The notes: a model not told the origin generated them from the letters alone. DNA of 64,000 bases from an uncultured Gammaproteobacteria bacterium (GCA_964512695.1 CAZEJU010000001.1:71803-135802), one strand, 5' to 3'. Positions 10-51,235 are shown, numbered from the stretch's first letter. Made by a program: numbers and translations.

Positions 10-1209
10 ATGATGAAAGTTCTTCTTTTAGAAAATATTCATCCAATAGCAAAAGAGTTATTGGAATCAGAAGGGTATACTGTAGAAGCTCTTAAGAGAG
101 CCCTTACGAAAGATGAACTGAAAGAGAAAATAAAAGACGTTTCTATTTTAGGTATTCGTTCAAAAACTGAAATTTCAGAAGAAATTATTCAAGAAGCACA
201 AAAACTGTTAGCCATTGGGGTTTTCGCGATAGGCACGAACCAGGTAAATCTTCAAGCATGTTCCCAAAAGGGAATTGCCGTTTTTAATGCCCCATATAGT
301 AATACAAGAAGTGTTGTGGAGCTGACTTTTGGAAGTATTATCATGCTCTACAGAAAAGCTTTTGATAAAAGCATGAAATTACATAAAGGAATTTGGGAGA
401 AGTCAGCAAAAGGGTCTCATGAGGTCCGAGGGAAAAAATTAGGCATAGTCGGTTACGGAAATATAGGATCGCAATTATCTGTGGTCGCTGAGAGTTTCGG
501 CATGGATGTTTATTTTTACAATACGAGTGAGACGCTTGCTTTAGGAAACGCAAAAGCATGCAAATCCCTGGAAGAATTATTAAGAATAGCTGATGTTGTA
601 ACAATTCATGTCGATGGAAGGAAAAGTAATAAGGACTTAATTTCGGAAAGAGAGTTTTCACTCATGAAAGATGGCGTTATCTTTCTGAACTTGAGTAGGG
701 GATTTGTAGTAGATATCGATGCGTTAGTCGCACATATTAAAAATGGCAAAATTGCTGGAGCTGCTATTGATGTATTTCCGAAAGAGCCAAAAAGTAATGA
801 TGAATCATTTTTATCTCCTTTACAAAATCTACCAAATGTCATTTTAACCCCGCATCATGGTGCAGGAACAGAGGAAGCCCAAGAGAATATAGCTCGCTTC
901 GTCCCAAGTAAACTTAAAAACTTTATCGATACAGGAAATACAACGCTGAGCGTTAATTTTCCAGAGATCCAGCTTCCAGAACTTACCGAAGCCCACCGAT
1001 TTATTCATATACATCTGAATAAGCCTGGAATCTTGGCACAAATTAACAATATTTTTGCCAGAAATAAGATTAATATAGAAGGACAATATTTAAAAACTAA
1101 TGAAGATATTGGCTACGTAATTACTGATGTTAATAAAAACTATAGTAAAAAAGTTATCAGCGAGTTAAAATCAATACCAGAGACAATAAGAGTAAGAGTA
1201 CTCTATTAA
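10..1209 (+). CDS. serA: D-3-phosphoglycerate dehydrogenase with C-terminal ACT domain
   Basis: 2-hydroxyacid dehydrogenase fold with NAD-binding GxGxxG (GIVGYGNIGSQ). C-terminal ACT-like regulatory segment. Adjacent serC. Confidence 0.85.
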   Translation: MMKVLLLENIHPIAKELLESEGYTVEALKRALTKDELKEKIKDVSILGIRSKTEISEEIIQEAQKLLAIGVFAIGTNQVNLQACSQKGIAVFNAPYSNTRSVVELTFGSIIMLYRKAFDKSMKLHKGIWEKSAKGSHEVRGKKLGIVGYGNIGSQLSVVAESFGMDVYFYNTSETLALGNAKACKSLEELLRIADVVTIHVDGRKSNKDLISEREFSLMKDGVIFLNLSRGFVVDIDALVAHIKNGKIAGAAIDVFPKEPKSNDESFLSPLQNLPNVILTPHHGAGTEEAQENIARFVPSKLKNFIDTGNTTLSVNFPEIQLPELTEAHRFIHIHLNKPGILAQINNIFARNKINIEGQYLKTNEDIGYVITDVNKNYSKKVISELKSIPETIRVRVLY

Positions 1210-1288
1210 TTAAAAGTCAAAAGGTAAAAATTAAAAGTCTTTTGCAAGTGAACTCTTAACTTTTGACTTTTGACTTTTAACTTTTAAT
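1209..1288. repeat. Intergenic hairpin element built from tandem heptamers (ttaaaagtcaaaag ... cttttgacttttgacttttaacttttaa)
   Basis: Inverted arms of ttttgac/ttttaac heptamers read directly from the sequence. Related copies at 23891-23966 and 36486-36550. Position suits a serA terminator. Confidence 0.6.
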
Positions 1289-1295
1289 TAAACCT

Positions 1296-2363
1296 ATGGT
1301 CTATTTCACGCCTGGTCCATCACAACTCTATCCGACAGTTAAAGGTCATATTCTTAAAGCTTTAGAAGACGACATTCCCTCGTTATCTCACAGAAGTGAA
1401 AAGTTTCATGAATTTGTTAAAGACTCCTATATTTCTTTGCGCAAACTACTTTCAATACCTGAAGATTACTCTATTTTTTACACAGCTTCTGCAACTGAAG
1501 CCATGGAAAGAATTATCGAAAATTGCGTAGCAAAGAAAAGTTTTCACTTCGTGAATGGTTCATTTGCAAAAAGATTTTACCAAATCGCTAAAGATTTAAA
1601 AAAAGAACCTGAAGCAAAGTTTTTCGACGTTGGAAAAGCTTTTAACTGTAGTGATGTATCGATACATAGAAACACTGAGTTGATTGCAATTACGCAAACA
1701 GAAACAAGTGGAGGAGTTTCAATACCCTTAAAAGATATATATGCACTTCGTAAACAGCATCCTCAAGCACTCATTACAATCGATATTGTTTCTTCTATAC
1801 CCTATGTGAACTTAGATTATTCAAAATTAGATTGTATTTTTTTCTCTGTACAAAAAGGCTTCGGATTACCTGCTGGTCTGGGAATTCTCATTGTAAGCCC
1901 TCGAGCTATGGATAAGGCCTTATTTCTCATGCAAAAGGGTTTTAATGTGGGAAGCTATCATAAGTTTCATACATTAAAAGAACAAGGGGACAAGTTTCAA
2001 ACTATTGAGACACCAAATGTCTTAGGCATATTTTTATTTCATAAAGTTTTACAAGATTTCTTAGAAGTAGGTATAGAAACAATCAGAAAACAAACTGAAG
2101 AAAAAGCAACGACACTCTATGATTTTTTTGATAATCATAGGACGCTTCAACCTTTTGTGTCAGAAAAAAAATATCGTTCGAAAACGGTAGTCATTATCGG
2201 AACACCTGATGGATCGAAACCTATTCTAGCTAAACTAAAAGAGCATGGATACGTCGTAGGATCAGGGTATGGAGAGATGAAAGAAAACCAAATCCGCATA
2301 GCTAACTTTCCAGCACATAGTACCAATGATATGAAACACTTACTCCAAGCTATTCCTCAATAA
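1296..2363 (+). CDS. serC: Phosphoserine aminotransferase (class V aminotransferase)
   Basis: Length 355 aa and N-terminus typical of SerC. Directly follows serA. Confidence 0.8.
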   Translation: MVYFTPGPSQLYPTVKGHILKALEDDIPSLSHRSEKFHEFVKDSYISLRKLLSIPEDYSIFYTASATEAMERIIENCVAKKSFHFVNGSFAKRFYQIAKDLKKEPEAKFFDVGKAFNCSDVSIHRNTELIAITQTETSGGVSIPLKDIYALRKQHPQALITIDIVSSIPYVNLDYSKLDCIFFSVQKGFGLPAGLGILIVSPRAMDKALFLMQKGFNVGSYHKFHTLKEQGDKFQTIETPNVLGIFLFHKVLQDFLEVGIETIRKQTEEKATTLYDFFDNHRTLQPFVSEKKYRSKTVVIIGTPDGSKPILAKLKEHGYVVGSGYGEMKENQIRIANFPAHSTNDMKHLLQAIPQ

Positions 2364-2600
2364 CTTTCATTCTCCCCTTACTTTTTCCCTGATGTCCCGT
2401 TTAAACCAGATCCAACGTGGATTATTATACGTAGCCTCCATCTTTTAATATAAGACGTGAACTGATATCATCGTCCTATAGCTTCAACCCACAACTTCCT
2501 GATCCTACGTGTACGAATAGAATATTGTTCAGTTCACAGAAGTAGGATCAAAACCTCCCTTGCAACCGAAGCTAGAATAAGGTAAAATACGATAGTAATT

Positions 2601-2679
2601 GAGAATTGAAAGTTGAGAATTGAGAAATAAGTAATACATTTCTTCATAACTCTCAACTCTCCATTCTCAACTCTCAATT
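2601..2679. repeat. Intergenic hairpin element, gagaatt/ttgagaa heptamer family
   Basis: Arms gagaattgaaagttgagaattgagaa and tctcaactctccattctcaactctcaatt are inverted repeats. This explains the spurious ORF 2534-2788. Confidence 0.65.
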
Positions 2680-2684
2680 TAAAT

Positions 2685-2876: not shown

Positions 2877-2913
2877 ACCAATTGTGTATTCTGAACTTGT
2901 TTTTCGAGAGTAA

Positions 2914-3000
2914 TAATTCAGAATGTAAAGTTCAGAATTCAGAATGAAATGTACAAATAACTATTATACATATTATTCTGAATTAATAATTCTGAATTCT
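2914..3000. repeat. Intergenic imperfect inverted repeat of ttcagaat units
   Basis: ttcagaattcagaat opposed by attctgaattaataattctgaattc. Lies between rpmF and nusB. Confidence 0.5.
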
Positions 3001-3071
3001 ACATCTGCATATCAGAACAAGCTCATCTTAATTGTTTACTTCTAGTATAGATTTAAAGTATAGTTATAGGT

Positions 3072-3431
3072 ATGAAGACATCGTCTGATCCTCGTCATAA
3101 ACGTCGCCAACATATAGTACAGGAATTATTTAAAGTCGACTTTTATACGCAGCCGATAGATACAATTGCCAAACCAATTATAGAAAATAAACAACTGATT
3201 GATGAAAGAATCCAACAAGCTGCTCCTGAGTTTCCAATAGAAAAAATTAATAAAATAGATTTAGCAATATTACGTTTAGCTGTATTTGAATTACTAATAG
3301 AAAAAAAAGAACCTGCAAACGTTATTATTGATGAAGCTATAGAACTAGCAAAAGAATTTTCAGGCGATACAAGTCCAGCGTTTGTCAATGGGGCACTTGG
3401 AAATATAATACAACATGATAAATCTTCCTAA
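3072..3431 (+). CDS. nusB: Transcription antitermination factor NusB
   Basis: NusB-like helical protein. C-terminal motif AFVNGALGNI. Confidence 0.75.
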   Translation: MKTSSDPRHKRRQHIVQELFKVDFYTQPIDTIAKPIIENKQLIDERIQQAAPEFPIEKINKIDLAILRLAVFELLIEKKEPANVIIDEAIELAKEFSGDTSPAFVNGALGNIIQHDKSS

Positions 3432-4077
3432 TTTCAATAATAAAGATCTCTTACGGCAGGCGTTTATACACCGCTCATATCTTAATGAAACAAGAGAAAA
3501 ATTATCATCGAATGAACGTCTTGAATTTTTAGGAGATAGTATTTTATCATTTGTAACTTCTGAGCATCTTTATAAAACGTATCCTCAGTTTAACGAAGGC
3601 TTATTAACAAATATTCGTTCTCTTGTGGTTAACACAAAGAGTCTAGCAAATATAGCGAAAGAATATGACTTTGGAAAAAACTTAATGCTTTCACGTGGTG
3701 AGGAAGAATCTAAGGGTAGAGAAAATGAATCTTTACTAGCAAATTCTGTAGAAGCATTCATCGGAGCATTGTATTTAGACCAAGGAATTGACCCCGTCAG
3801 ACAATTTATACTTGGTATTTTAGTGCCTAAGATAGAAGCTATTGTCCAAAAGAAAGCGTTTAAAGATCCAAAAAGTATGCTCCAGGAATATGTCCAGGCA
3901 CAAAAGCAAAATTCCCCTGTCTATAAAGTGCTTTTGGAGGATGGCCCACCTCATGCAAGAACTTTCACGATCGGAGTATTCATTCAGGATAAACAACTCG
4001 GCCAAGGAACAGGTAAATCCAAACAAGAAGCAGAAGAAAATGCTGCAAAACAAGCACTTGAACAGATTGATAAATAA
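3415..4077 (+). CDS. rnc: Ribonuclease III
   Basis: RNase III signature ERLEFLGDSIL. C-terminal dsRBD. Overlaps nusB by 17 nt. Confidence 0.9.
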   Translation: MINLPNFNNKDLLRQAFIHRSYLNETREKLSSNERLEFLGDSILSFVTSEHLYKTYPQFNEGLLTNIRSLVVNTKSLANIAKEYDFGKNLMLSRGEEESKGRENESLLANSVEAFIGALYLDQGIDPVRQFILGILVPKIEAIVQKKAFKDPKSMLQEYVQAQKQNSPVYKVLLEDGPPHARTFTIGVFIQDKQLGQGTGKSKQEAEENAAKQALEQIDK

Positions 4078-5434: not shown

Positions 5435-6115
5435 CTACTCAGTTGAAGCAGACCATACACGAAGTGTATTAAGAAGTTCTTTATCTTGCTGATTTAACTG
5501 TGTTAATGATACTGAATCAATTATCTTCAAGTCTGGAAATTCCTTAATGTAGAATGTTAATGATATAACAGCTTTCCCAGCAGAATACTCTATACTTTCT
5601 AATTTCGCTATAGGCAACTTCGTTTCAGACTCTTTAATAAAAGCATTAATATCATCTATAGTGCCATCTACACCAAATTTTATAGTTATTGGTGATACTT
5701 TTACAGTAGAAGGACTGCCGTCTTTGGATACCTCACCTATAGAAAATGTATAATCATCAATTCCTATTCTGCTAGTTAAAGCCATTTTTCCAATCGCTTG
5801 AAGTATTCCTATAAAATCTCTCTCATGAGGTAAAGCTTTCGTGGCAACTGAATACTCTTCATTTATTTGAACGTTATTCATATTACGTAGCAATCGACTA
5901 TTTTCTTGCATAACAGTAATGCGATCTTGGGTTTCCCGAATTTCGTTCTGGATAGAAAACCAATTTTGGAAATGAGGTAAAACAAAAAAGCCGAATAACA
6001 ATAAGCTAATCAATATAATAAAAGCAGGAGCAACTATCGGGTAATACGATGAATAACGAAATTGATTAAAAGCTAAACTTAGATTTCTGATGATGTAACG
6101 TAACTCATTATTCAT
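5435..6115 (-). CDS. pilO: Type IV pilus assembly protein PilO-like
   Basis: Single N-terminal TM helix followed by a coiled region. Last gene of the pilMNO set. Confidence 0.55.
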   Translation of the reverse strand: MNNELRYIIRNLSLAFNQFRYSSYYPIVAPAFIILISLLLFGFFVLPHFQNWFSIQNEIRETQDRITVMQENSRLLRNMNNVQINEEYSVATKALPHERDFIGILQAIGKMALTSRIGIDDYTFSIGEVSKDGSPSTVKVSPITIKFGVDGTIDDINAFIKESETKLPIAKLESIEYSAGKAVISLTFYIKEFPDLKIIDSVSLTQLNQQDKELLNTLRVWSASTE

Positions 6116-8663: not shown

Positions 8664-9242
8664 CTACTTCGCATTTCTCATAGTCACCGAAGATTGAAAA
8701 ATAACCGAAGAAGGGTCATCCAGAAAAGATGTCTTCACTATTTTATCTATAGTAAAACTCACACCAATAGTATAAGGATTATCCGAAGCTGACTGGGTAC
8801 ATGTAAATGTGCAAGCAGTCATCTGATATGTAGTGTTATCAATAAGCGAAGCGCTATTCGAAGCAACTGTTTGAGGATTACCACCGCATGAAAAAGTTGT
8901 CTGACCACCGTCAAGTGCAGTAAATCTAACATATCTATATGTGGTTAGGGAACTTGATGATGGAAGTTGACAAACTTTCGTATACGTAACATTATCGTTA
9001 CTGACACCATCAAATAATTCCGCGTACTGTAGCATTTTTGTCATCTGCGTTATCGCGTAATTACCATTTTGTTTTATAGTTTCTAAATTATTTATTTTCT
9101 TAACACTTCTAAGTGAAATAAAAAAAACAGCGGCAATGGTAGAAGTGACTGTGGCAAGTACCACTAAAGAAATAAGTAATTCAACCAAGGTGAAACCTTT
9201 CTGAATTGAGAATGGAGAATTGAGAATGGAGAATTTTTTCAT
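8664..9242 (-). CDS. Type IV prepilin-like protein (minor pilin)
   Basis: KGFTLVELLISLVVLA prepilin cleavage/methylation motif. Unusually long 16-aa leader whose codons lie in a heptamer-repeat arm. Confidence 0.7.
   Translation of the reverse strand: MKKFSILNSPFSIQKGFTLVELLISLVVLATVTSTIAAVFFISLRSVKKINNLETIKQNGNYAITQMTKMLQYAELFDGVSNDNVTYTKVCQLPSSSSLTTYRYVRFTALDGGQTTFSCGGNPQTVASNSASLIDNTTYQMTACTFTCTQSASDNPYTIGVSFTIDKIVKTSFLDDPSSVIFQSSVTMRNAK
9203..9236. repeat. Half-copy of gagaatt heptamer element inside pilin 5' end
   Basis: tgaattgagaatggagaattgagaatggagaatt. Translates to FSILNSPFSIQ in the pilin leader. Confidence 0.55.
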
Positions 9243-13576: not shown

Positions 13577-13626
13577 GAGACGTGAGAATGCAAAGAAGTA
13601 TATGTAATTCTCAATTCTCAATTCTT
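13577..13626. repeat. Intergenic hairpin element, gagaatt heptamer family
   Basis: gagacgtgagaatg opposed by taattctcaattctcaattctt. Lies between pilT stop and pilC start. Confidence 0.5.
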
Positions 13627-13628: not shown

Positions 13629-14711
13629 TTAACCCTTGGCCATTCTTAATAATTCTTGTTCATGAAGAGCGTATGCACGTGCTTCGTCGAGAGTCACGAC
13701 TCCACCAAGAACAAGTTGTGCCAGAGAAGCTTCTAGGGTCATCATGCCTATATCCTTTGACGTCTGGATGACAGAATCGATAAGGTGTGTTTTTCCATCC
13801 CTGATATTACTTGCTATAGCAGGATTGCCTATAAGTATCTCAGTCGCCGCAACTCTTCCACCACCAATTCTTGGAACAAGCCTCTGCGATACGATACCAC
13901 GAAGAATTGCAGCAAGCTGAACTTTTATTTGTGCGCGCTGGTGGTCAGGAAACGCATCTATGATACGGTCGACACTTTGGGATGCGGAATTCGTGTGTAA
14001 CGTAGCAAATACCAAATGTCCTGTTTCAGCAAGAGTAATTGCCGCTTGAATAGTCTCGGGATCGCGCATTTCTCCTACGAGAACCACATCAGGATCTTCA
14101 CGTAATGCAGCACGAAGTGCCATAGGCCATGAATGTGTATCTTGGCCAAGCTCTCGTTGGGACACAATACTCATTCCAGCTGGATATATATACTCTATTG
14201 GATCTTCAATCGTTAAAATATGTACGGGCTTTGTCATATTTATTTCATTCAGCATTGCAGCTAGTGTAGTTGATTTACCATGACCGGTCGGACCAGTTAC
14301 TAGAACAAACCCTTGCTTTAAACTAGCAAGTTCATGGCAAACTTTCGGCAAACCTAACTCGTCTATTGAACGGATTTTGGGAGGAAGATAACGGAGTGCA
14401 GCTGCTAAATATCCCCTTTGATAATATGCATTAATACGGAAACGTCCCTCATCTCCATAAACACCACCACCATAACCGTATGAAAAATCTAACTCCTTAT
14501 TTGTAATTAATAGTTCTTTTTGTTCTGCGGTTAAAAGGGAAGCAACCATTTGCTCAATGTCATGGGGTTGTAAAACTGGATAATTTTTTACACCTTTCAA
14601 CACACCATCTATACGCAGGGTAGGTGGTATTCCTGCCAATAAATGCAAATCTGACCCTTTACTTTTAACAGTAAGTTCTAATAATTTTAATATTTCGCTC
14701 GTTACAGGCAT
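13629..14711 (-). CDS. pilT: Twitching-motility (retraction) ATPase PilT
   Basis: Walker A LVTGPTGHGKSTTLAAM. PilT-type motifs AALREDPDVVLVGEMRD and GHLVFATLHTNSA. Start trimmed to MPVTSEIL, because the upstream extension is translation of a repeat. Confidence 0.85.
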   Translation of the reverse strand: MPVTSEILKLLELTVKSKGSDLHLLAGIPPTLRIDGVLKGVKNYPVLQPHDIEQMVASLLTAEQKELLITNKELDFSYGYGGGVYGDEGRFRINAYYQRGYLAAALRYLPPKIRSIDELGLPKVCHELASLKQGFVLVTGPTGHGKSTTLAAMLNEINMTKPVHILTIEDPIEYIYPAGMSIVSQRELGQDTHSWPMALRAALREDPDVVLVGEMRDPETIQAAITLAETGHLVFATLHTNSASQSVDRIIDAFPDHQRAQIKVQLAAILRGIVSQRLVPRIGGGRVAATEILIGNPAIASNIRDGKTHLIDSVIQTSKDIGMMTLEASLAQLVLGGVVTLDEARAYALHEQELLRMAKG

Positions 14712-14715
14712 ATTT

Positions 14716-14798
14716 GAATTGAGAGTTGAGAGTGGAAAGTTGAGAGTTATTAAGAAACTTATTAAATATTTCTCAATTCTCAACTTTCAATTATCAAT
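14716..14798. repeat. Intergenic hairpin element, gagaatt heptamer family
   Basis: tgaattgagagttgagagtggaaagttgagagtt opposed by tctcaattctcaactttcaattatcaattt. Abuts the pilB stop. Explains spurious ORF 14719-14916. Confidence 0.65.
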
Positions 14799-16583
14799 TT
14801 ACTCTTGTGCGACTCTCAGTACTTCTTCTATTGTCGTTAAACCCTGCAGAACTTTCAAGTACCCGTCTTGCTTTAAAGTAATCATTCCTTCTACAGCTGC
14901 TTCTTTTTCTATTTGAGCTGTATCAGCACGCTCTAAAATCAAACGGGCAATTTTATCGGTTACTGACAAAACTTCAAAAATTCCGACTCTTCCTGAATAT
15001 CCGGTTGAACCACATTCTTGACAACCTTCTCCTTTATATAATCTCATATCATCAGATATTTTTGAAGAGAGTGTACCAAGTACTTCTTTTATTTCAGTTA
15101 TAATTTGCTTTGGTGGAACATAATTAGTTTTACAACTATCACATATTCTTCGAACGATCCTTTGGCCTACAATAGCATTGAGAGTCGAAGAAAGAAGAAA
15201 TCCCTCAGCACTTAGATCTAGTAAACGTGGTAAAGCTCCTGCCGCGTTTGAAGTATGAAGTGTTGAAAAGACGAGATGACCTGTTAACGCAGCTTGAATT
15301 GCCAGATCAGTTGTTTCTCGATCACGGATTTCTCCTACTAAGATAATATTTGGATCTTGTCGTAGAAATGAACGCAATCCCGATGCAAATGTTAACCCTA
15401 CAGCAGGATTTATCTGTACTTGGTTAACACCAGCTAGCTGATACTCTACTGGATCTTCGAGTGACATAATATTAACTTTAGGCGTATTCAATTTCGAAAG
15501 AATAGAGTAGAGCGTAGTAGTTTTACCACTACCTGTAGGACCACACACAATAATAATGCCGTGAGGTCGAAGTATAGCCAACTCCAGACTTTTCAAAGAT
15601 ATTCCTGTCAAACCTAATTCAGCTAAAGAAGGTACTCCTCCAGATTTACGTAAAAGTCTCATGACGACTTTTTCACCTGTAACAGTAGGAACTGTCGATA
15701 TACGAAGGTCAACTTCTTCACCACCAACTTTAAAGTTAAATCGTCCATCCTGAGGGGTTCTTCGCTCATCAATCTTCATTTCAGAGAGAATTTTAATACG
15801 GGAAATTAAAGCTTCTTGTACATTGCGGGGAAGACTAAGCTTGTCATATAAGATGCCATCAATTCTATACCGTACTCGGAGACGATCGTCTTGGGGTTCT
15901 ATATGGACATCTGATGCTCTACTCGAAACTGCATATTCTAAAATAGTTGAAAGAATTTTAGCTATAGGTGCTTCTTTAATAATTTGTGTCAGCTGTTTAC
16001 TATCAACGACACGCTTCTTTGTGTACGCTTCGGTTTCCTGAATTGCTTTACCCACTTCGCCCACGAGTTCTTGTCTGTATTGTTGCTGGATTGCTTCTTC
16101 AATTTCCTTGGGATTTGCTGCAAATGATTTAATTATCAGCTGTGTTTTCTGTCCTATAAACGCAATAGCATCTAGATCTACCGGATTTGCCATAGCTATA
16201 GAAAGCGTTTTGGTTTTATCATCATAGGAAAAAGGAATTACTTTAAATCTTTCAACTACGGCTTGAGATAAAAAATTTAATGCTTGAGGTGAAAACGATA
16301 TCGTGGAAAGAGAAATATAAGGAATTCCTAGTAGCTTTGCCCGCGCCTGAGCAATTTGCTCATCATCAACAAGGTGCATTGCGAGAAGAATTGCTTCTCG
16401 AGATTTACCCGTTGAAGCACTTTTTACTTTTATATCCTCATACTGCTCCTTTGTGATAATATGATCAATAAAAAGAACATCTACTATCGATTTCGCTTCT
16501 TCTATTTGAGATAAAGTAAACGAAGGATCAGATGTTTTTGTATCAGATACGTGTGGAACAAGTACATCAGTATCACTGGGCAT
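14799..16583 (-). CDS. pilB: Type IV pilus assembly (extension) ATPase PilB (GspE family)
   Basis: Walker A CGPTGSGKTTTLYS. N-terminal GSPII_E_N-like domain. C-terminal tetracysteine CDSC...CQEC. Confidence 0.85.
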   Translation of the reverse strand: MPSDTDVLVPHVSDTKTSDPSFTLSQIEEAKSIVDVLFIDHIITKEQYEDIKVKSASTGKSREAILLAMHLVDDEQIAQARAKLLGIPYISLSTISFSPQALNFLSQAVVERFKVIPFSYDDKTKTLSIAMANPVDLDAIAFIGQKTQLIIKSFAANPKEIEEAIQQQYRQELVGEVGKAIQETEAYTKKRVVDSKQLTQIIKEAPIAKILSTILEYAVSSRASDVHIEPQDDRLRVRYRIDGILYDKLSLPRNVQEALISRIKILSEMKIDERRTPQDGRFNFKVGGEEVDLRISTVPTVTGEKVVMRLLRKSGGVPSLAELGLTGISLKSLELAILRPHGIIIVCGPTGSGKTTTLYSILSKLNTPKVNIMSLEDPVEYQLAGVNQVQINPAVGLTFASGLRSFLRQDPNIILVGEIRDRETTDLAIQAALTGHLVFSTLHTSNAAGALPRLLDLSAEGFLLSSTLNAIVGQRIVRRICDSCKTNYVPPKQIITEIKEVLGTLSSKISDDMRLYKGEGCQECGSTGYSGRVGIFEVLSVTDKIARLILERADTAQIEKEAAVEGMITLKQDGYLKVLQGLTTIEEVLRVAQE

Positions 16584-23822: not shown

Positions 23823-23890
23823 GGGCAGAAACTAATATAATACTACCATATACTACTTTTAAAGTAATATACAAGAAGTAAGAACGAAAA

Positions 23891-23966
23891 AGTTAAAAGT
23901 CAAAGGCAATAAGTTTCTATTGTACTTTTAACTTTCAACTTTTGACTTTTGACTTTTAACTTTTAT
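23891..23966. repeat. Intergenic hairpin element, ttttgac heptamer family
   Basis: agttaaaagtcaaagg...tacttttaactttcaacttttgacttttgacttttaacttttatt. Same family as 1209-1288. Confidence 0.6.
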
Positions 23967-28052: not shown

Positions 28053-30001
28053 TTGTTTATGAGCGCTGGCAACAGAAATAGCGAAATAAGTAATAATAAA
28101 AATCATAAAAAAATGACACTTCTTGCCTTAGGTGCTCTTGGCGTAGTATATGGAGACATAGGGACATCTCCACTATATGCTATAAATGAAATTTTCTTCG
28201 GACATGCAAAGCTTTCTCATACATATAACAATATTATAGGAGGGATCAGTACTGTATTTTGGGCACTAACACTTATTGTATCTTTTAAGTATGTACTGTT
28301 TGTACTTCGTGCCGATAACGAAGGAGAGGGAGGAGTCTTTGCGTTATATGGATTGATAAGACATTTAAAAAAAAGTCTGTCGGATTATTACTTGCACTGC
28401 TTATAATCGCAGCTGGACTGTTATTCGGTGATGGCATTATTACTCCAGCGATCAGTGTTGTCTCAGCTATCGAAGGCTTAAAAATTGCTACGCCATTATT
28501 GTCTCCTTATGTAGTTCCAATAACAATACTCATCCTTACAGGGCTTTTTATGATTCAAAGTAAAGGTACAGCAAAAATTGGAAATCTCTTTGGACCCATA
28601 GTCAGCATTTGGTTTCTTTCCATAAGTTTATTGGGCATTAATCAGATTTTTCAACATCCGCAAATACTTCAGGCATTCAATCCATTAAATATGCTAACTT
28701 TTATACAAACACATGAATTACACACCATACTATTTTTTTTAGGATCTGTGATGCTTGTAGTAACTGGTGGAGAAGCAATGTATGCTGATATGGGACATTT
28801 TGGTCGAACCCCTATCCGAATAAGTTGGTTTTCTATTGTATATCCTTCACTTGTTTTAAATTACCTTGGTCAAGGAGCATATTTATTAAGTCATAAAGAA
28901 ATTATAGGTGAAAATATCTTTTATAGTATGGTTCCTAGTTGGGGACTTTATCCTATGGTAATACTTGCTACAATGGCAACAATTATTGCATCTCAAGCAC
29001 TAATATCAGGCGCGTTTTCTTTAACCATTCAAGCCATTCAGCTGGGCTTATTACCATATATGAAGGTAATACATACACACGAAGAGCAAAAAGGCCAAAT
29101 TTATATTCCATTTGTAAACTGGGCATTATATATCGGTTGTGTTCTACTTGTAGTTACATTCAAATCAAGCACAAATCTCGCCTCTGCATATGGTTTAGCA
29201 GTGTCAGGAGTAATGCTTGTTACCTCTCTGGGAATGATAATGATTTCTCATTACTATTGGAAGTGGAGCTGGTTTAAGACATTAGCCTTATGGATACCAT
29301 TGGCATGTATTGATGGAATATTCTTAACTTCTAATTCAATAAAAATTTTTTCTGGAGGATATATACCGTTAATTATCGGATTTGGTGTTCTAATATTTAT
29401 GCAAACGTGGGAATGGGGCAGAAAACATGTTACCGATACGTTCGAAAAACTAAAAAATTACAAAGTTGCGGACTTAGTACGTATTAAAAAAGAAAATGAT
29501 TCCGTTTTACCTAGATCTATAGTGCTTATGACAAAACAACCCTTAGAAAGGTTGGAGGATAGTAGCCCATATATGCAACTTTTCTTAGATAGATATGGAA
29601 TTCTACCCGAACATTTATTGTTCCTTTACGTTGAAGTTACAGATCAACCGCATAACTACCAAGATAGATATGAGATTATTTCATTTTATCAACATATCGA
29701 TAAAGGAAGTATATTATCCGTTAAAGCAAAGTACGGATTTATGGAAGATATTGATGTTGAGTTATTACTTAGAGATCTTGCAAAACATAAAGCAATTCCT
29801 ATAGAAGAAGATCCGCGAGAGTGGCTTATTCATGCTGTACATGAAAGAATACTACGTGGCGAATTTAAATCAATAGTTGATAAAATGCGATATATACTAT
29901 TTATTATGATACATAGAGTCACTACTCACGCTGATACATACTTCAACCTCGGTAGAAGAAATAAACTTACAATTGAGATACTTCCAGTATATATCCACTA
30001 G
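28053..30001 (+). pseudogene. kup: KUP-family K+ uptake transporter interrupted by a frameshift in an A8 homopolymer
   Basis: N-terminal piece [18 protein letters not shown] (frame 0) ends shortly after the A-run at 28367-28374. The downstream 500-aa ORF (frame 2) continues the Kup sequence (LLFGDGIITPAISVVSAIEGL...). An A9 run would restore one frame. Confidence 0.7.
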
Positions 30002-36311: not shown

Positions 36312-36497
36312 TTGAAGATGAAATGTCCCATTGATAAAACTGAAATGGAAAAAGGAGCTATTAGTATTCCTGGGAAAGTTGATACAATGTGGTATTCAAG
36401 AAAATCACTCCTAGATAGTATAAGGGGTAAAGAATTAATTGCTTATAGATGTCCTAAATGTGGAAAAATCGAATTAACAACTGAACCAGATAAATAA
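36312..36497 (+). CDS. Small zinc-ribbon protein
   Basis: CPIDK...CPKCG paired CxxC-like motifs. 61 aa. Confidence 0.35.
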   Translation: MKMKCPIDKTEMEKGAISIPGKVDTMWYSRKSLLDSIRGKELIAYRCPKCGKIELTTEPDK

Positions 36498-36550
36498 TTT
36501 TAACTTTTGATTTTTCCCTAAGGTCCTTGTCCTTAGGATCAAGGAGACTT
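36486..36550. repeat. Intergenic element with interleaved palindromes (cctaagg/ccttagg and tccttg/caagga) flanked by ttttaac units
   Basis: ttttaacttttgatttttccctaaggtccttgtccttaggatcaaggagacttttaacttt. Confidence 0.45.
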
Positions 36551-36563
36551 TTAACTTTATTTT

Positions 36564-39131
36564 ATGAATGTAGGTAAATTACAACCAATAGATATAACAG
36601 AAGAGGTAAAAAGAGCGTATTTAAATTACGCGATGTCTGTTATCGTATCCCGCGCGCTTCCTGATGTTCGTGATGGATTAAAACCTGTTCACAGGCGTAT
36701 TCTTTTTGCTTTACATGAAATGGGATTAACCCACGCGGCTAAATACTCTAAATGCGCGAAAATCGTCGGAGAAGTCATGGGTAAATATCACCCTCATGGC
36801 GATATGCCAATTTATGACGCATTAGTACGTTTAGCCCAGGATTTCGCAATGCGATATCCATTAGTCGACGGTCAAGGAAACTTCGGTTCTATTGATGGAG
36901 ACCCTCCAGCTGCTATGCGTTATACAGAAGCGAAAATGGCAACTATTACATCTGAACTACTAGCAGATCTCGATAAAGAAACAGTCGATTTTACACCGAA
37001 TTTCGATGCTACTCTCCAAGAACCAGATTTCCTTCCCGCCAAATTACCAAACCTACTCTTGATGGGTTCTGAAGGTATTGCTGTCGGTATGGCCACGAAG
37101 ATTCCTCCACATAATCTCGCTGAAGTCGTTGATGCAATTATTCACATGATAGGAAAAACAAAAATAGAGAAAGCTAATCTCACAAATGGGGAGGCACAAA
37201 CGAAACTCGTTAGTGGAGAAGTAGGAACAGCACCTGATCTAGCAATAAACAGAAAAGATTCATACACCGTAACCTCTGACGTGACGATAGAGGAACTTCT
37301 GGAGTTTATTAAAGGACCTGATTTTCCAACAGGTGGGATAATCTACGATGCCGCTGAAATAAAAAATATGTACATGACAGGACGTGGGAAAGTTCTGATG
37401 AGAGGTAAAACAGAGATTGAAGATATCGGACAAGGAAAATCTGCAATCATAGTTACAGAGATTCCATATCAAGTTAATAAAGCACAATTAATTGCAAAAA
37501 TTGCTGATCTTGCTAAAGACAAAAAGGTGGAAGGTATTTCTGACCTTCGTGATGAATCCGATAGACGTGGCCTACGAATATATATTGAATTAAAAAGAGA
37601 TGCAGTTCCAAAAAAGGTTCTCAATAACTTATTCAAGTATACGAATTTACAAGCAACATTCCCGGCAAATATGGTTGCACTTGTAGATGGCACACCTCAA
37701 ACACTGAATCTTAAAATTATTCTTGAAGAGTATATCAAACACCGTTATATCGTTATTCGAAGAAGATCAGAATTCGAATTAAAACAAGCAAAAGCCCGTC
37801 TTCATATTCTCGAAGGTTTAAAAATCGCAGTTGATCATATTGATGCAGTTATAAAAACAATTCGCGAATCCGCAACACAAGAAGAAGCAAAAACTAATTT
37901 AATGGCGAAGTTTAAATTATCTGAGATTCAATCCACAGCTATTCTCGACATGCAACTTCGTAGATTAGCTGCTCTTGAACGACAAAAAATTGAGGATGAA
38001 CTTACGATGGTGAAAGAAACTATCGCGTATCTTGAAGATCTATTAGCACATAATGAAAAAATACTCGATGTCGCAAAGCAAGAGTTGGTTAAGATAAAAG
38101 AGAAATATACAGATGCCCGCAGAACAAAAGTCTTTAAAGGAAAAGTCGATGAGTTTTCAGAAGAAGACCTCATCCCAAATGAACCGACTGTTATTACGCT
38201 TACACAGACAGGCTATATAAAACGTCAAAGTATGAATTCTTTCACCACACAAAATAGAGGAGGGAAAGGAGTATCTGGAATGAAAATGAAAGACGAAGAT
38301 ACCATCGCACATATACGTTCTGCGATGACACATGATAATATTCTTTTCTTTAGTAATAAAGGGAAAGTCTATCAACTTCGTGCATATGAAATCGCTGAAA
38401 GTAGCCGGGTTAGTAAAGGATCAGCAATTATTAACTTATTAAATATCGAGGCTGGAGAGAAGGTAGAATCTTTCGTTATTTATAAACCAGATTTGAAGAG
38501 CGGTTATGTTTTCTTAACGACAAGAAATGGAACTGTTAAAAAAACAGCACTAAAAGAATTTGCGAATATACGACGAAGCGGTATGATTGCTATTAAACTA
38601 GAAAAAGGTGATGAACTTGTTTGGAGTAATTTTACAACTGGAGAGAACGAAGTACTTATTATCACCAAAGAAGGAAAAGCAATCCGATTTAAAGAAGATG
38701 CTGTACGGTCCACAGGCCGCGACACAATGGGTGTAAGAGGAATTAAACAATTGGAAGGTGATGAAGTAATAGGTATGGATGTTATTACAAAAGGAGATAA
38801 CCCTGACTTATTAACAATAATGCAGAATGGGCTTGGAAAGAAAACTGAAATACGCCAATTCCCGTTACAGAGTAGGGGAGGGCAAGGCGTAAAAGTTGCC
38901 AAAGTAACTGAAAAAACTGGTCAAGTAGCTATAGCACAAGTAATTCCTGCTACAGGAGAAGAAGTAATCATTACATCCTCAAAAGGACAGGTTGTAAAGT
39001 TATCCCTCAGTCAAATTCCAAAACTCTCACGAGACACTCAAGGTGTTATTCTTATGCGGTTCTCTGATAAATCGGATAAGGTTACATCAGCTACTTGTAT
39101 AGAAAAAACCCCAAGTACTTCAACTCCATAA
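36564..39131 (+). CDS. gyrA: DNA gyrase subunit A
   Basis: [27 protein letters not shown]-terminal signature. C-terminal beta-pinwheel repeats. Confidence 0.9.
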
Positions 39132-44595: not shown

Positions 44596-46212
44596 TTACT
44601 TCATTGCCGAGCTATGAATTTTATCTATCGTTTCTCTCGCCACACTCATACTAGTGATAAGATGAACATTCTTCGCGACAGCTTTTTGGCGGATAGTAAA
44701 TCCATCACTTTTCTCATGTTCTTTCGGTCTTCTTCCTGTAGGAATATCGATAATCAAATCAAAACGATTTGCATCTAAAAGATCTGTTAAATTTGGTTTT
44801 CTAGCCTGTGAAATTTTATATATAAGTACAGCTTCAATATTATTTGTTTTGAGGAATTTATGTGTTTTATAAGTGGCGTATAATTTATAACCATTTTCTG
44901 ATAATTTCTTTATATAAGGTAGTAATTTTATTTTGTTTTTTCTACCGCCTATTGTAACAAGAGCGGTTTTTTCACTTCTTCTCGCAAGCTTCATTTGTAA
45001 AGTATAAATTTCTATAAATCCTGCCGAGGCATTTTGATTAAATGCAGTTGAGGCCATAAATGTCGCTAGTTTCTCCTGGAAAATAGAGTTTGGTGTTTCA
45101 GTCGCCACAGGTTCTACTAGTCCTTTATATAATGTAAGTGTTACCTTACCAGTTACTTTCTTATTAACCTGATCTATATACGCATTTAAATCATTCATGA
45201 GCGGTTCATACCAGAGACCGCCGTAGCAAAGATACGCCCATTTCGTATCGACAATTGATTTGAATTCATTTTCCAAACGTGTAGACACATACTTTTCTAG
45301 ATTCCTATGTGCAGTAATTATTATTTCTGCTGCAGGAGCCTCGTATAAACCGCGGACCTTTAATCCGACAACTCGATCTTCTATATGATGAGCTAATCCA
45401 ATCCCATGCTTCGCGCCTATTTCGTTTAGTCGTAATATAATTTGCGATAATTTCATAGGCTTACCATTAAGGGCGACGGGTATACCTTTAATAAACTCCA
45501 ATTCGACTTTTTTAGGTCTATTCGGAGCATTTTCTGGAAGAGTACTTATAAGGAGAATGTTCTCTAAAGGAGGAATTAATGCAGGATTTTCTATCTCTCC
45601 ACCTTCACCAGTTACACCCCACATATTATCATCATATGAATACAGCTTGTCCGCAGTTTGACGAACTGGAATCCCATGTTTTTTTGCATAGAGAATTTCT
45701 TCATCTCTACCCATAGACCATTCGCGGACTGGAGCTATAATCTTAATATCCGGATTAAGTGTTAATGCAGTTCCTTCTATGCGTACTTGATCATTTCCTT
45801 TTCCTGTACAACCATGAGCAATGGTATCTGCGCCTTCTTGGGCTGCAATTTTTACTGCCCATTTAGCTAGAAGAGGTCTGCCAAGTGGAGTGGAAAGATA
45901 ATATCGTCCTTGATAAGAACCATTTGCTTTAATACCCTTGGCTATGTATTCATTCGCGAATTCATCTTTGGCATCAATAACATATGATTTGATAGCGCCG
46001 AGTTTTAATGCTTTGTTTTTAATTTCTTCTAAATCGTCAGTTTGCTGACCTATATCTATGCAGAGCGCGATAACTTCTGCATTATATTCCTCCTGAATCC
46101 ACTTGAGCATTACTGATGTATCAAGACCTCCAGAATAGAGGAGAACTACTTTTTTTACTTCACCCTTTTTCCCCTCGTATGATGCAACTCGTTGATAAAC
46201 GTTATCTTTCAT
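44596..46212 (-). CDS. argG: Argininosuccinate synthase fused to C-terminal MGS-like domain
   Basis: LLYSGGLDTS PP-loop and ArgG core to about residue 400. C-terminal ~140 aa with DLIIDIPTG resembles the MGS-like allosteric domain. Confidence 0.75.
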   Translation of the reverse strand: MKDNVYQRVASYEGKKGEVKKVVLLYSGGLDTSVMLKWIQEEYNAEVIALCIDIGQQTDDLEEIKNKALKLGAIKSYVIDAKDEFANEYIAKGIKANGSYQGRYYLSTPLGRPLLAKWAVKIAAQEGADTIAHGCTGKGNDQVRIEGTALTLNPDIKIIAPVREWSMGRDEEILYAKKHGIPVRQTADKLYSYDDNMWGVTGEGGEIENPALIPPLENILLISTLPENAPNRPKKVELEFIKGIPVALNGKPMKLSQIILRLNEIGAKHGIGLAHHIEDRVVGLKVRGLYEAPAAEIIITAHRNLEKYVSTRLENEFKSIVDTKWAYLCYGGLWYEPLMNDLNAYIDQVNKKVTGKVTLTLYKGLVEPVATETPNSIFQEKLATFMASTAFNQNASAGFIEIYTLQMKLARRSEKTALVTIGGRKNKIKLLPYIKKLSENGYKLYATYKTHKFLKTNNIEAVLIYKISQARKPNLTDLLDANRFDLIIDIPTGRRPKEHEKSDGFTIRQKAVAKNVHLITSMSVARETIDKIHSSAMK

Positions 46213-46241: not shown

Positions 46242-46382
46242 AAACTAAAAAATTAAGTAACTGATGCTTCTCAATGCATACGTTTTCTAAAAAATCTGTA
46301 AATATTTGAGAAAAATTGCTTTTTACCATTACAGTTACTGTAAAGAATTACATGATATATGTCAACTATAAAAAACTGTATC

Positions 46383-46470
46383 ACTACTAACTACTAACTA
46401 CTAACTACTAACTCATGACTCATAACAGGTAACTCGTAACTCATAATTCACAATTTGTAACTGCAAACTA
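46383..46470. repeat. Tandem heptamer array (CTAACTA)n degenerating into TAACTNN units
   Basis: ctactaactactaactactaactactaactcatgactcataacaggtaactcgtaactcataattcacaatttgtaactgc. 7-nt periodicity visible. Confidence 0.7.
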
Positions 46471-47811: not shown

Positions 47812-48747
47812 TTACTTATTCCCTGAATGAAAGGATTTATGGACATCACGTAATTGTTTATTCGTAACATGCGTATAGATTTGGGTAGTAGCGATATTTT
47901 TATGACCAAGCATTTCCTGAACTGAACGTAAATCCGCGCCATTACTGAGTAAATCAGTCGCAAATGAATGCCGTAAAGTATGCACAGAAGCATCTACAGG
48001 TAGGCGAGCCATCTTTACATACTTTTTAACCATACGCTCTACACTTCTCACAGTTAAACGCATCTTTTCCCCGTCATTTTCCGATTCAATTCTTCCGGAA
48101 TAACGAATAAATAATGGCCGATATCTATCAGTTCGAACTTCCAAGTATCTCCCTAACCAGTCCACCGCCCTGTCAGATACGAATACGACACGAGCCCGTC
48201 CACCTTTTCCTATAATACCGAATTCGCCTCTATCAAAATTAATCTGGTCATGATTAAGTTTTACTAACTCTGATACGCGTAATCCTGTAGAGAAGAGTAG
48301 TTCTAAGATCGCACGATCCCGGAGGCCGTCTTCTTTCGATGTGTCTGGCATAGTAACCAGTTTTTCTACTTGTTCACGATCAAGAAACTTAAGTGACTTA
48401 CTTTCCGCTTTAGGAAGTTCAAGCTTAGCAGGTTCGACGGTTTTAAAGTCATTTTTAATAAGATACTTTAAAAATGATCTAAGGGCTATAACATAATAGT
48501 TTTGTGTGACACGCTTAATTGTCCGGCCTTTATCGTCAGTTTTATTTACCAAGTAAATTCTGTAGCGACGGATGATTTGTAAATCCAAATCTTCAAACTT
48601 CTTTTCAGGATAATTCTTTTTTAACCACTCAGAAAAAGTCCCAAGATATAACTTATAATTACGAATTGTTAGCTTCGAACAATTCCTTTCAACTTCTAAG
48701 TATTCCAAGAAATCCTGGATTAGTTCTGGAAGGCGGGGAGCAGACAT
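47812..48747 (-). CDS. xerD: Tyrosine site-specific recombinase XerC/XerD family
   Basis: LRDRAILELLFSTGLRVSEL, GKGGRARVV, HTLRHSFATDLLSNGADLRSVQEMLGHKNIATTQIYTHV (R-H-R-Y catalytic set). Confidence 0.85.
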   Translation of the reverse strand: MSAPRLPELIQDFLEYLEVERNCSKLTIRNYKLYLGTFSEWLKKNYPEKKFEDLDLQIIRRYRIYLVNKTDDKGRTIKRVTQNYYVIALRSFLKYLIKNDFKTVEPAKLELPKAESKSLKFLDREQVEKLVTMPDTSKEDGLRDRAILELLFSTGLRVSELVKLNHDQINFDRGEFGIIGKGGRARVVFVSDRAVDWLGRYLEVRTDRYRPLFIRYSGRIESENDGEKMRLTVRSVERMVKKYVKMARLPVDASVHTLRHSFATDLLSNGADLRSVQEMLGHKNIATTQIYTHVTNKQLRDVHKSFHSGNK

Positions 48748-48805
48748 AGTATCTACTGTACAAAAAACATAGGATAATGTCAACTATTGTGCGACGCGGG
48801 ATTGT

Positions 48806-49339: not shown

Positions 49340-49386
49340 AGGTTAGTATGGGAACATTTTATCGATATTGTCAATGGAAGGATGTA

Positions 49387-49989
49387 TTAACACTTTCCTT
49401 GAGGAATATTAATAATAACTGTCTTATACTCTAGTGCTTTAAGAAGCGTAGTGAGCTGATTTCTTCCATTCTTAGATGCTTCCTGTAGAATGCCACCATT
49501 ACAAGCTGCTTGTTTAATAGTATCTTCTGCTACTTTACGTGCCTTCGATTCTAAGTCTTTGTTTCCTTTTGTTAATAAACCTTGTTTTCTATCATACACA
49601 CGTGTTTCTTCATTATTTAGCTTAGAAACTAATATTTCTGCCGCGGGAAGTGTTAACCGAATAGTATCGCCATCAATTTGTATTGACTTATCATCCAATA
49701 TCGAGAGATCAAAACCAGCAATAACTTCTCCATGAGCTATTAAAAGGATTTGATCTCCAAATAAAAACTCTTGGAATACATTCCCACTTGTACCCGCATC
49801 AATCACTTTTTCAATAGTAAATGAGGCTGTTTCAAGTCTCTGCAACGACTGAATCTGCTTGATAACTGTTTGTCTACTAACTTTAAAAATAGTAGGGGAG
49901 GGTGAGAAGAAAGCTTTAAGCCCTAAAATTAAAGTAATAAAAGGTATAAAAAGCAAAATTATTAATAATACCGTAAGTTGTTTCTTCAT
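49387..49989 (-). CDS. DUF4230-like membrane-anchored protein
   Basis: N-terminal TM helix and ~170-aa soluble domain. Weak family resemblance. Confidence 0.3.
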   Translation of the reverse strand: MKKQLTVLLIILLFIPFITLILGLKAFFSPSPTIFKVSRQTVIKQIQSLQRLETASFTIEKVIDAGTSGNVFQEFLFGDQILLIAHGEVIAGFDLSILDDKSIQIDGDTIRLTLPAAEILVSKLNNEETRVYDRKQGLLTKGNKDLESKARKVAEDTIKQAACNGGILQEASKNGRNQLTTLLKALEYKTVIINIPQGKC

Positions 49990-51106
49990 TTGCTCTAATT
50001 ATAAAAATATTTATTTCGTAAAACAAGTGAAAAACCGGTGGAGAAGTCTTCCGTGAAAATTAATTTTCACGAGATGTTAAAAAATCATTATATCTTAGTC
50101 ATAGCTATCTACTGGATATACTACAGAACTATGTATTTATCAAGTCAAATCATCAACTTTATAAATTCTTAGAAACAATGAGTGATTACATAGTTATCAT
50201 TTATTTCCCGAGGTGTAGATATAGTTTAACCCCCGGGGTTAGAAAGTCGATGTAAGGAATATGTAGGTTACTTATTCTAAAATCTGTCTGGAAAGGCTTT
50301 CTTTTTTTGCTTAAATTATCACATAAAAACAAGGCTAAAATGAAGGCCGTAGAATGCCCTAGAAAGGTTTTATTTTATGAAGACGGCTAATATGTCATCG
50401 ATAATTTCCATGAAAAATGTCTTCCCTAATGAAAAAAAACCGGGGAAGATACAACTGTGAAAAACCTTACAAAAATAGCCTCAAAAAAGCTGCATGAAAT
50501 CAAAGATAAACCTATAGTTAAAATTTGAATGGATTTCTACGTACACGCACTAAAAGGTAATATAGATGAGTTAGTAATCACTTATTTACGTGCATAATAA
50601 CAAAATAATACGGTATGTTTTTAAGATTAAGTAAAACCTCTTCTCCGGTTTCTGAACTTACGTAACGTCGTAAAAGTTATATTGTTCGACGTTACAGTTT
50701 AACGGGCAATCCCAAGGAGAGTAGTATGAAATGAAGACATGACAAAGTGTACTAAAGTAAAGCCGAAGATAAAGCTACTTCTCTTAAGCAAATGGACATA
50801 GTAAGCCTCCTCCCCAAGAAACACCAGAATACACTGTAGAAACCTATTTTCGTATTTTTTTCATATTTATGTGCGTATTTTCCCCACGCGGTAGGACACC
50901 TATCACTTGAAAGACACAATCGCTTAGCCTCTGTACCTGCCTTACTTTGATGTTTCTTTACGTGCCACAGTCAGCTTTGTGAAAAGTGAAGGTATATCGT
51001 GAAAAGTTTTATATAAAGGCCTATAATTTTAATATACCTTTCTATATAAAACTATATCATTTAGCCTCAGAGACTCTCCTCTCTTCCCTAGTTTCTAAAC
51101 ATTAAA

Positions 51107-51235
51107 ACTAGACTAACTACTAACTTCTAACTGCTAACTACTAACTTCTAACTGCTAACTACTAACTACTAACTGCTAACTGCTAACTGCTAACTGCTAA
51201 CGACTAACTTCTAACTACTAACTTCTACCTTCTGA
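51107..51235. repeat. Tandem heptamer array (TAACTNN)n, about 18 units
   Basis: taactac taacttc taactgc taactac taacttc taactgc taactac taactac taactgc x4 taacgac taacttc taactac taacttc. Same unit and orientation as 46383-46470. Confidence 0.75.

Follow-up and report, generated by a model that had tools for sequence, protein, structure and literature searches.

Heptanucleotide repeat arrays and spacer-filling hairpins in a Levybacteria-like genome fragment, with a possible role in messenger RNA

Results

Arrays and hairpins of the window

The 64 000-nucleotide stretch of DNA analysed here (GCA_964512695.1, CAZEJU010000001.1:71803-135802; 'the window', in whose coordinates positions are given unless another contig is named) carries tandem heptanucleotide arrays in its gene spacers, several of which are paired with an inverted array to form a long hairpin. 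A preliminary description of the same DNA had listed at least nine intergenic loci with inverted repeats made of tandem heptamers. Eleven elements, E1 to E11, are distinguished below, seven of them hairpins. E1 (1206–1291, plus strand; RNA fold z = −3.3) consists of AAAAGTY/RACTTTT heptamers and fills the spacer from serA (stop codon at 1209) to serC (ATG at 1296). E2 (2597–2679, plus strand; z = −4.1, second fold −4.4) consists of ARTTGAG/CTCAAYT heptamers and makes up the entire 5′ leader of rpmF, leaving 5 nt before the ATG at 2685. A promoter-like sequence, TTGCAA-17-TAAAAT (2560–2588, plus strand), is conserved upstream of rpmF in six genomes, and on the strength of that conservation the transcription start is predicted at the first bases of E2. 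E3 (2915–3000, plus strand; z = −5.5), made of degenerate AATTCAG/CTGAATT heptamers, lies between rpmF (stop at 2876) and nusB-rnc (ATG at 3072). On the minus strand, E5 (13577–13626; z = −3.7) separates pilT (stop at 13629) from pilC (ATG at 13553) and combines a 5′ arm of three exact GAATTGA units with a degenerate 3′ arm; E6 (14716–14798; z = −4.5) is a copy of E2 that fills the spacer between pilB (stop at 14799) and pilT (ATG at 14711); and E7 (23888–23966; z = −4.5) is an E1-family hairpin directly 3′ of the stop codon of a P-type ATPase gene (23967). E7 is trailed by a U-rich tail, UUUUUCGUUCUU, and is the most terminator-like of the seven hairpins. E11 (52897–52996, minus strand; z = −6.5), the strongest hairpin of the window and missing from the preliminary list, has 9-mer arms (TGATACNNN) and is located between a promoter-like site (53033–53004, minus strand, TTGCAA-18-TATAAT) and the ATG of yebC (52889).

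The other four elements are direct arrays. E4 (9199–9236, minus strand; z = +0.4) is a single array of period 7/14 with the sense strand TTCTCCA TTCTCAA; it has no inverted partner and lies within the leader-peptide codons of a prepilin (MKKFSILNSPFSIQKG followed by FTLVE). E8 (36486–36563, plus strand; z = −0.4), directly upstream of the gyrA ATG at 36564, has direct TRACTTT units on either side of a small CCTAAGG/CCTTAGG hairpin and no inverted heptamer array. E9 (46381–46455; z = +0.2), upstream of argG, has four to five TAACTAC units followed by TAACTCR units. E10 (51112–51237), 29 nt past the stop codon of an open reading frame (ORF; 51266–52117), consists of about 17 CTAACTN units, with TAACTGC, TAACTAC and TAACTTC as heptamers, and a super-period of 21 nt, and scores 155–194 in Tandem Repeats Finder (TRF).

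TRF reports period-7 arrays at every locus of the preliminary list. When the window was scanned for periods of 4–14, period 7 gave 10 arrays compared with 0.3 in Markov shuffles, its multiple 14 gave 9 and the remaining periods 0–3 each; the heptamer periodicity is thus real and specific to period 7. The arrays are head-to-tail copies of a unit within the 5–11 nt range and exceed chance length, and so qualify as heptanucleotide long simple sequence repeats (LSSRs). Inverted heptamer arrays with significant folds are found at six loci (z from −3.3 to −5.5): E1, E2, E3, E6 and E7, which are paired by an inverted-repeat search, and E5, which was added by RNA folding. Their arms measure 20–37 nt and are 73–91% complementary, the stems contain 22–35 paired positions, and alternative pairing registers are offset by 7 nt. 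The preliminary description was right that the arms are built from tandem heptamers and that several sub-families share one architecture, and right that the hairpins sit in gene gaps and abut stop codons, which applies to these six. Its count was too high. Six loci fold stably, but 9203–9236, within the 5′ end of the prepilin ORF, holds one direct array, 36486–36550 is an ordinary small GC hairpin beside direct units, and neither 51112–51237 nor 46381–46455 is anything other than a direct array.

At least four unrelated unit families occur within the 64 kb, and sequence is shared only by E2 with E6 (90% identity over 83 nt, loop included) and by E1 with E7 (an exact 29-mer). Two look-alike ORFs, 2534–2788 and 14719–14916, do read as had been reported; they run antisense to rpmF and pilB and resemble one another because E2 and E6 are 90% identical DNA. 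The identity of these two elements (2597–2693 vs. 14702–14798, minus strand) runs past the hairpin through AAATATGCC. It thereby covers the start codon of both rpmF and pilT together with the opening bases of their second codon, as though a cassette of leader and start had been copied. Among the 62 window ORFs there is no transposase or RAYT, only a Xer-like recombinase. A search of Rfam returned one tRNA-Leu and otherwise no match.

Spread in related genomes and viral contigs

Among the relatives of GyrA and PilM, those with a name belong to Levybacteria or 'Patescibacteria group', and the closest syntenic relative is a 'Ca. Levyibacteriota' metagenome-assembled genome (MAG; L002, with PilM at 82% and SerC at 71%); the hairpin-rich region has no nearer relative. 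These matches suggest a Levybacteria-like host within the Patescibacteria, or candidate phyla radiation (CPR). Period-7 arrays number 14 per 100 kb in the window, 11 in syntenic relatives, 7 in loci found via SerC and 12 in PilT relatives at 56–70% identity; at PilT loci of ≤ 52% identity the figure is 0.6. Over 1.13 Mb of loci, 70 period-7 arrays were counted, vs. 0–25 at any other period. The elements had been considered genome-specific, and confinement of the motif to the window had been named as a ground for abandoning the idea of a repeat family; at 7–12 arrays per 100 kb in related loci, and with their architecture and even individual heptamers recurring in MAGs of related Patescibacteria and in many viral contigs, they are neither genome-specific nor confined to the window.

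Most arrays in the related loci are single and direct (62 of 80); the other 18 have an inverted partner within 150 nt, where 1% would be expected. Significant hairpins are found in 15 of 29 array-containing gaps, vs. 61 of 255 (P = 0.003). The units conform to a loose consensus, YAAYTYT (4.9 bits, vs. 3.9 in the null and at most 4.1 in shuffled units), and the most enriched 4-mer is TTGA/TCAA (z = 6.2). The TRACTTT family recurs in the window, L002, L007, L010, L014 and L041, the CTCAAYT family in the window, L002 and L030, and an exact TAACTGA array, (TCAGTTA)n, is present in L002 at 5606–5634. Arrays of (TTGAGAR)3 or longer were found in more than 120 IMG/VR viral contigs (L118–L197 plus further loci) with GC contents of 31–69%, often with several and at most six arrays per contig; such an array frequently makes up all of the DNA between two ORFs, its YTCTCAA strand lying 0–19 nt before the start codon. 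A literature search found no report of heptamer repeats in Patescibacteria, and their lineage-wide presence in Patescibacteria/CPR is apparently unreported.

In three hairpins of relatives (L027, 1680–1810; L002, 11130–11205; L091, 2697–2768) internal loops or mismatches recur every 7 nt; the arms are complementary in a core of 4–5 nt per unit and the other 2–3 nt are unpaired.

Placement and orientation

Placement was assessed on 26 co-directional gaps of ≤ 160 nt, each holding a significant hairpin. The median distance from the upstream stop codon to the main stem is 2 nt, that from the end of the stem to the next start is 15.5 nt, and the hairpin takes up 78% of the gap. In the window, E1 and E6 occupy the interval from the stop codon to 4 nt short of the ATG, and E5 stops 23 nt short of it. 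The start of E2 and of E11 lies about 7–8 nt past a promoter-like −10 box, and the distance left to the ATG is 5 nt for E2 and 7 nt for E11. The paired arrays form an imperfect hairpin of 25–35 bp that occupies most or all of the untranslated spacer; the hairpin begins at a stop codon or at a predicted transcription start and stops 4–23 nt short of the next ATG. A significant hairpin is found in none of the six convergent gaps of the window.

A plain sense/antisense tally of the arrays gives no orientation bias; a bias appears only when arrays after a stop codon are separated from those before a start codon. Of the solo arrays that follow a stop, 11 have a purine-rich and two a pyrimidine-rich sense strand; of those that precede a start, eight are pyrimidine-rich (nearly G-free) and three purine-rich (Fisher P = 0.011 for the split). 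The pyrimidine-rich arrays end 3–13 nt before start codons. Since the rule depends on the transcribed strand, it points to a role of the arrays in connection with transcription or translation and not with DNA alone. Heptamer hairpins have the A-rich/purine-rich arm on the 5′ side in 12 cases and on the 3′ side in two (P = 0.013), a polarity limited to the heptamer subset, as hairpins taken together show none (34 vs. 29). In the viral contigs, ORF starts no more than 20 nt downstream were counted 53 times for the YTCTCAA strand and 25 times for the other strand (P = 0.002).

Orthologous junctions

The promoter-like TTGCAA-17-TA(A/C)AAT ahead of the rpmF leader is kept in six genomes, and in five of the six the leader folds as a long hairpin (z from −2.4 to −5.9); the sequences of these hairpins are unrelated among genomes and several are visibly heptameric. 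The rpmF-nusB spacer forms a hairpin in the window (z = −5.5), L090 (−3.4) and L089 (−2.4) and folds marginally in L002 (z = −2.1, with 8 of 200 shuffles folding as well). At the serA-serC gap both the window and L002 have an AAAAGTN hairpin, and L007 has a direct array of 13 units from that family; in most other relatives the gap is only a few bases long. At the pilB-pilT junction a hairpin is present in the window, in L030 (of the CAACTTT family, as in the window), in L091 (of an AGAGC-type heptamer) and in L041, and the 84-nt spacer of L089 folds weakly. Taken together these comparisons indicate that the position recurs, that the sequence turns over and that the element is dispensable at any one site.

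Heptamer arrays lie in or against the leader peptides of type IV prepilins or pseudopilins in five genomes: the window (9199–9236), L002 (17652–17701), L003 (17487–17520), L032 (18516–20329) and L035 (12522–12555 and 15275–15298). A change of one unit would shift the prepilin reading frame, which makes pilin phase variation possible. The arrays of the window and L002 are orthologous and of opposite orientation, which fits descent from an inverted pair of which each lineage has kept one arm. No 7-nt insertion or deletion was seen among ten strains of a relative, 99.4% identical over 13 kb, in which arrays are few.

Expression signals

Shine-Dalgarno-like motifs precede only 9 of 61 window genes. 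TATAAT-like −10 boxes peak 5–9 nt before the ATG in the window and in L002, L003, L028–L032 and L089–L091, and T occupies position −1 in 64% of genes; the peak is not found in distant PilT loci. The position of the boxes points to frequent leaderless mRNAs, and judging from these signals the lineage seems to rely on leaderless, Shine-Dalgarno-independent initiation. A consensus scan finds canonical terminator-like sites at chance level (12 vs. 10.8 and 12 vs. 11.8), and a canonical promoter scan gives chance level or, in the second 20 kb, less than chance. The window also contains rnc (3415–4077, plus strand; Pfam Ribonucleas_3_3 and dsrm), whose product, RNase III, is a candidate trans-acting nuclease for the long stems.

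Discussion

Likeness to known repeats

The preliminary description did not recognise the elements as a described family; precedents do exist. The short tandemly repeated repetitive (STRR) sequences of heterocystous cyanobacteria have the units CCCCAGT, TTGGTCA and CAACAGT. None of the three is in our consensus list and the host is Patescibacteria-like, so the arrays are not cyanobacterial STRRs as such. With STRRs and with LSSRs in general (Mrazek et al., 2007) they share tandem 7-nt units that are mostly intergenic, come in many variants, are enriched in a lineage and are ascribed to slippage; they differ in their Patescibacteria/CPR host, in AT-rich units and in the roughly one-fifth to half of arrays that are paired by inversion into spacer-filling hairpins. 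The TAACTGA repeats, described from Beggiatoaceae, cyanobacteria and Bacteroidetes, are found a short distance ahead of start codons, in regions poor in ribosome-binding sites, and a translational role was proposed for them; that study concerns essentially one unit and a single indirect repeat (MacGregor, 2015; PMC4679880). Our arrays likewise stand a few nucleotides before start codons that lack a ribosome-binding site, with units such as TAACTGC, TAACTAC and TAACTTT, but they use many units, commonly form inverted pairs and include a complementary class, rich in purines, that follows stop codons. No TAACTGA array occurs in the window, which excludes that family in the strict sense.

The closest functional precedent is the hmw1A/hmw2A heptamer of Haemophilus influenzae, (ATCTTTC)n, which is transcribed in the 5′ untranslated region (UTR) as one arm of a long imperfect hairpin; RNase III cuts this hairpin, and the cleavage raises expression (PMC12721329). 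A processed hairpin of that type calls for a transcribed UTR stem of at least about 20 bp and for RNase III in the genome; the window has stems of 22–35 paired positions and an rnc gene, and for its elements transcription within a UTR and cleavage are predictions. The hmw case is a single virulence locus whose other arm is G-rich and not repetitive, whereas the present hairpins have heptamer arrays as both arms and occur at many loci, housekeeping genes among them, with phase variation as a possibility.

Some further hairpins resemble the elements in part. Long stems between cistrons are known from the RNase III sites of phage T7 early mRNA and from coat-replicase coupling in MS2. The functional analogy lies in a stem placed exactly between cistrons, with the downstream start adjacent to it or inside it; the phage stems are unique, conserved sequences without repeat construction, whereas the heptamer hairpins are known from sequence alone. 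REP/BIME, ERIC and the Correia-type miniature inverted-repeat transposable elements (MITEs) are likewise intergenic hairpin-forming repeats, transcribed with their neighbours, that can stabilize mRNA or be cut by RNase III. Each such family consists of scattered copies of a single conserved sequence that has defined ends and is moved by a transposase; in the present elements the units are tandem, the sequence differs by site and insertion signatures are absent.

Proposed action within the transcript

A role at the RNA level, for example in mRNA stability, is the most plausible class of function for the heptamer hairpins, and action on messenger RNA is probably a better account of them than a genome-specific mobile element. 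Within that class we favour, tentatively and with slightly less than even confidence, slippage-built RNA hairpins of UTRs and intercistronic spacers that gate translation and mRNA processing or stability. The elements would be heptanucleotide simple sequence repeats of a Levybacteria-like (Patescibacteria/CPR) lineage that grow by strand slippage and act within the transcript. Their C-bearing, G-poor strand (approximately YAAYTYT) could not fold on itself and would serve as an unstructured initiation leader for the downstream gene, at the place where the ribosome must load in a genome without Shine-Dalgarno sites. The complementary purine-rich 5′ arm, after the upstream stop codon, would pair with this leader and sequester it until a ribosome terminating on the upstream gene melts the arm, which would couple translation of the two genes; alternatively, RNase III could open or cut the stem. 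Stems at a transcription start (E2, E11) may shield the 5′ end of the mRNA, those past stop codons (E3, E7) its 3′ end, and stem length would be tuned by the gain or loss of units. Termination of transcription may be a further role for E7 and for a hairpin that L041 has in a convergent gap.

The proposal draws on the excess of period 7, the inverted partners and the significant folds, on the placement of the stems relative to stop codons and promoter-like −10 boxes, on the presence of hairpins of unrelated sequence at matching junctions in several genomes, on the orientation of solo arrays and of hairpin arms and the ORF starts near viral arrays, on rnc in the window, on the scarcity of Shine-Dalgarno-like motifs, on −10 boxes close to the ATG and on the hmw and TAACTGA precedents. 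Several observations weigh against it. The pilB-pilT junction is empty in 11 of 16 relatives (stop-to-start distance 0–22 nt), so the hairpin there is dispensable. Selection for RNA structure on one strand would leave a G·U signature and none is seen: of 50 co-directional hairpins the sense strand folds better in 26 and the antisense strand in 24, with no G·U asymmetry, and among the hairpins of the window it is the antisense strand that is the more stable, which is not general across the 50. Prepilin-leader arrays are mostly purine-rich, counter to the rule that pyrimidine-rich arrays precede starts. The orientation statistics comprise about 24 solo arrays with home-made gene calls, and the promoters, transcription starts and RNase III cleavage of the model are all predictions.

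A broader version of the proposal, which we think unlikely, would see in the heptamer arrays a slippage-tunable 'UTR code' of Shine-Dalgarno-poor bacteria, here CPR, and of many phages, in which G-less (YAAYTYT)n leaders are gated by a purine tract after the stop codon and opened only by the terminating ribosome or RNase III, and in which prepilin-leader repeats give episymbiotic CPR phase-variable type IV pili. Almost nothing is known of gene-expression control in CPR/Patescibacteria, and this lineage appears to be without Shine-Dalgarno sites and classical terminators. If action within the transcript is correct, expandable heptamer spacers would provide a simple and evolvable means of translational coupling and mRNA processing, perhaps also of pilin phase variation, and would make sense in functional terms of the heptamer repeats of cyanobacteria, Beggiatoaceae, Bacteroidetes and many phages, which have long lacked an explanation.

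Alternative explanations

A minority possibility that we take seriously is that the arrays are neutral or selfish by-products without a function of their own: slippage repeats, with inverted copies arising by template switching or quasi-palindrome correction, that survive only where they are harmless, for instance folded away in tight gene junctions. Their presence at orthologous junctions is patchy, the heptamer sequences turn over completely among relatives, sense and antisense strands are equally stable (26 vs. 24), pairing registers are offset by 7, and in E5 one arm is freshly homogenized while the other is degenerate. Heptanucleotide LSSRs are also the commonest long-unit class in many genomes and have been ascribed to polymerase slippage (Mrazek, 2007, as summarized in PMC4679880). 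By-products of this kind would not be expected to orient themselves by position as the solo arrays do (P = 0.011), to keep a fixed A-to-T polarity in heptamer hairpins (12 vs. 2), to recur with unrelated sequences at shared junctions of several genomes or to end their stems close to stop codons and predicted transcription starts; nor does the lack of 7-nt insertions and deletions among strains 99.4% identical over 13 kb, of a species with few arrays, speak for slippage.

Action at the level of DNA, with the arrays as periodic sites for a regulatory or nucleoid protein or as tracts that alter promoter spacing or reading frame (phase variation, e.g. of type IV pilins), is in our view quite unlikely. 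It would account for the shared unit consensus (4.9 bits vs. 3.9 in the null), for the rank of TTGA, the −35 core, as top 4-mer (z = 6.2), for the 21-bp super-period of E10, equal to two helical turns, and for the arrays in or against the prepilin leaders of the window, L002, L003, L032 and L035, where one unit more or less would shift the frame. A single sequence-specific protein is difficult to reconcile with so many different heptamers, however, and most hairpins stand beside housekeeping genes (serC, rpmF, nusB). No variation in copy number was seen among the near-identical strains of a relative with few arrays, and the orthologous prepilin arrays of the window and L002 have about the same copy number despite 18% divergence in PilM. 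A reading of the arrays as tandem −35 boxes was retained only as a part of this explanation: TTGA is enriched, but the strands are inconsistent relative to the genes.

That the hairpins are transcription terminators, an A-rich 5′ arm and a U-rich 3′ arm stopping RNA polymerase in one or both directions, is highly unlikely as a general account. The arm polarity (12 vs. 2) is what a bidirectional terminator requires, hairpins begin 0–2 nt past stop codons, E7 runs into its U-rich tail, the AAAAGTC/GACTTTT hairpin in the convergent gap of L041 touches both stop codons and, with GC-rich canonical terminators at chance level, something else must terminate transcription. Against this stand the six convergent gaps of the window, none with a significant hairpin, and the position of E1 and E6 (4 nt from the ATG) and E5 (23 nt) inside the apparent operons serA-serC and pilB-pilT-pilC, so near the next ATG that there is no room for a new promoter. 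Most hairpins lack a U tract after the stem, and promoter-proximal positions do not suit a terminator either. Canonical Rho-independent terminators were discarded in particular, as the stems are AU-rich, the scan is at chance, convergent window gaps are without hairpin and a U-rich tail follows E7 only; the bidirectional terminators of the preliminary description are accordingly not borne out.

The least probable of these explanations, and a very improbable one, is the REP/MITE-like system first suggested, short non-autonomous hairpins copied between intergenic sites by a transposase encoded elsewhere, for although E2 and E6 are 90% identical over 83 nt with the loop, E1 and E7 have their exact 29-mer and same-sample short-read contigs break inside E2 and at E8, only E2/E6 look duplicated, and their identity extends asymmetrically through AAATATGCC including the start codon. 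Each element is an inverted repeat throughout, but the target-site duplication of a MITE flanks neither E2 nor E6. The window encodes no transposase or RAYT, copies from different sub-families agree neither in length nor in terminal sequence, at least four unrelated unit families replace the many copies of one conserved 20–40 nt palindrome of REP/BIME, most arrays in relatives are single and direct (62 of 80), and the same heptamer family stays at serA-serC in the window and in L002 and L007, which are distant relatives.

Other features of the window

The 1.27-kb stretch 49990–51265 contains no ORF of ≥ 60 amino acids, and Rfam gives no match to it even at E ≤ 1. The 17-unit CTAACTN array (E10) forms its boundary, and a tyrosine-recombinase gene (47812–48747) is found about 1.2 kb away; the stretch could be a decayed insertion or an RNA of unknown kind. 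A Kup-type K+ transporter (Pfam K_trans) is distributed over two ORFs, 28059–28406 and 28550–30001, which cover positions 1–85 and 146–443 of the profile, and its gene is probably frameshifted or disrupted. The argininosuccinate synthase ORF (44596–46212, minus strand) has a C-terminal extension of about 120 amino acids that matches the C-terminal end of the carbamoyl-phosphate synthase large subunit.

Contigs assembled from short reads of the same or related populations (Logan, ENA) end within the repeats. L001 ends at about 2626 of the window, inside E2, and the same-sample Logan contig L088 begins at about 36490, at E8; in L098 (6053–6193) the contig goes on as an inverted segment at the rpmF leader hairpin. 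In practical terms, heptamer elements break or mis-join short-read assemblies of such genomes.

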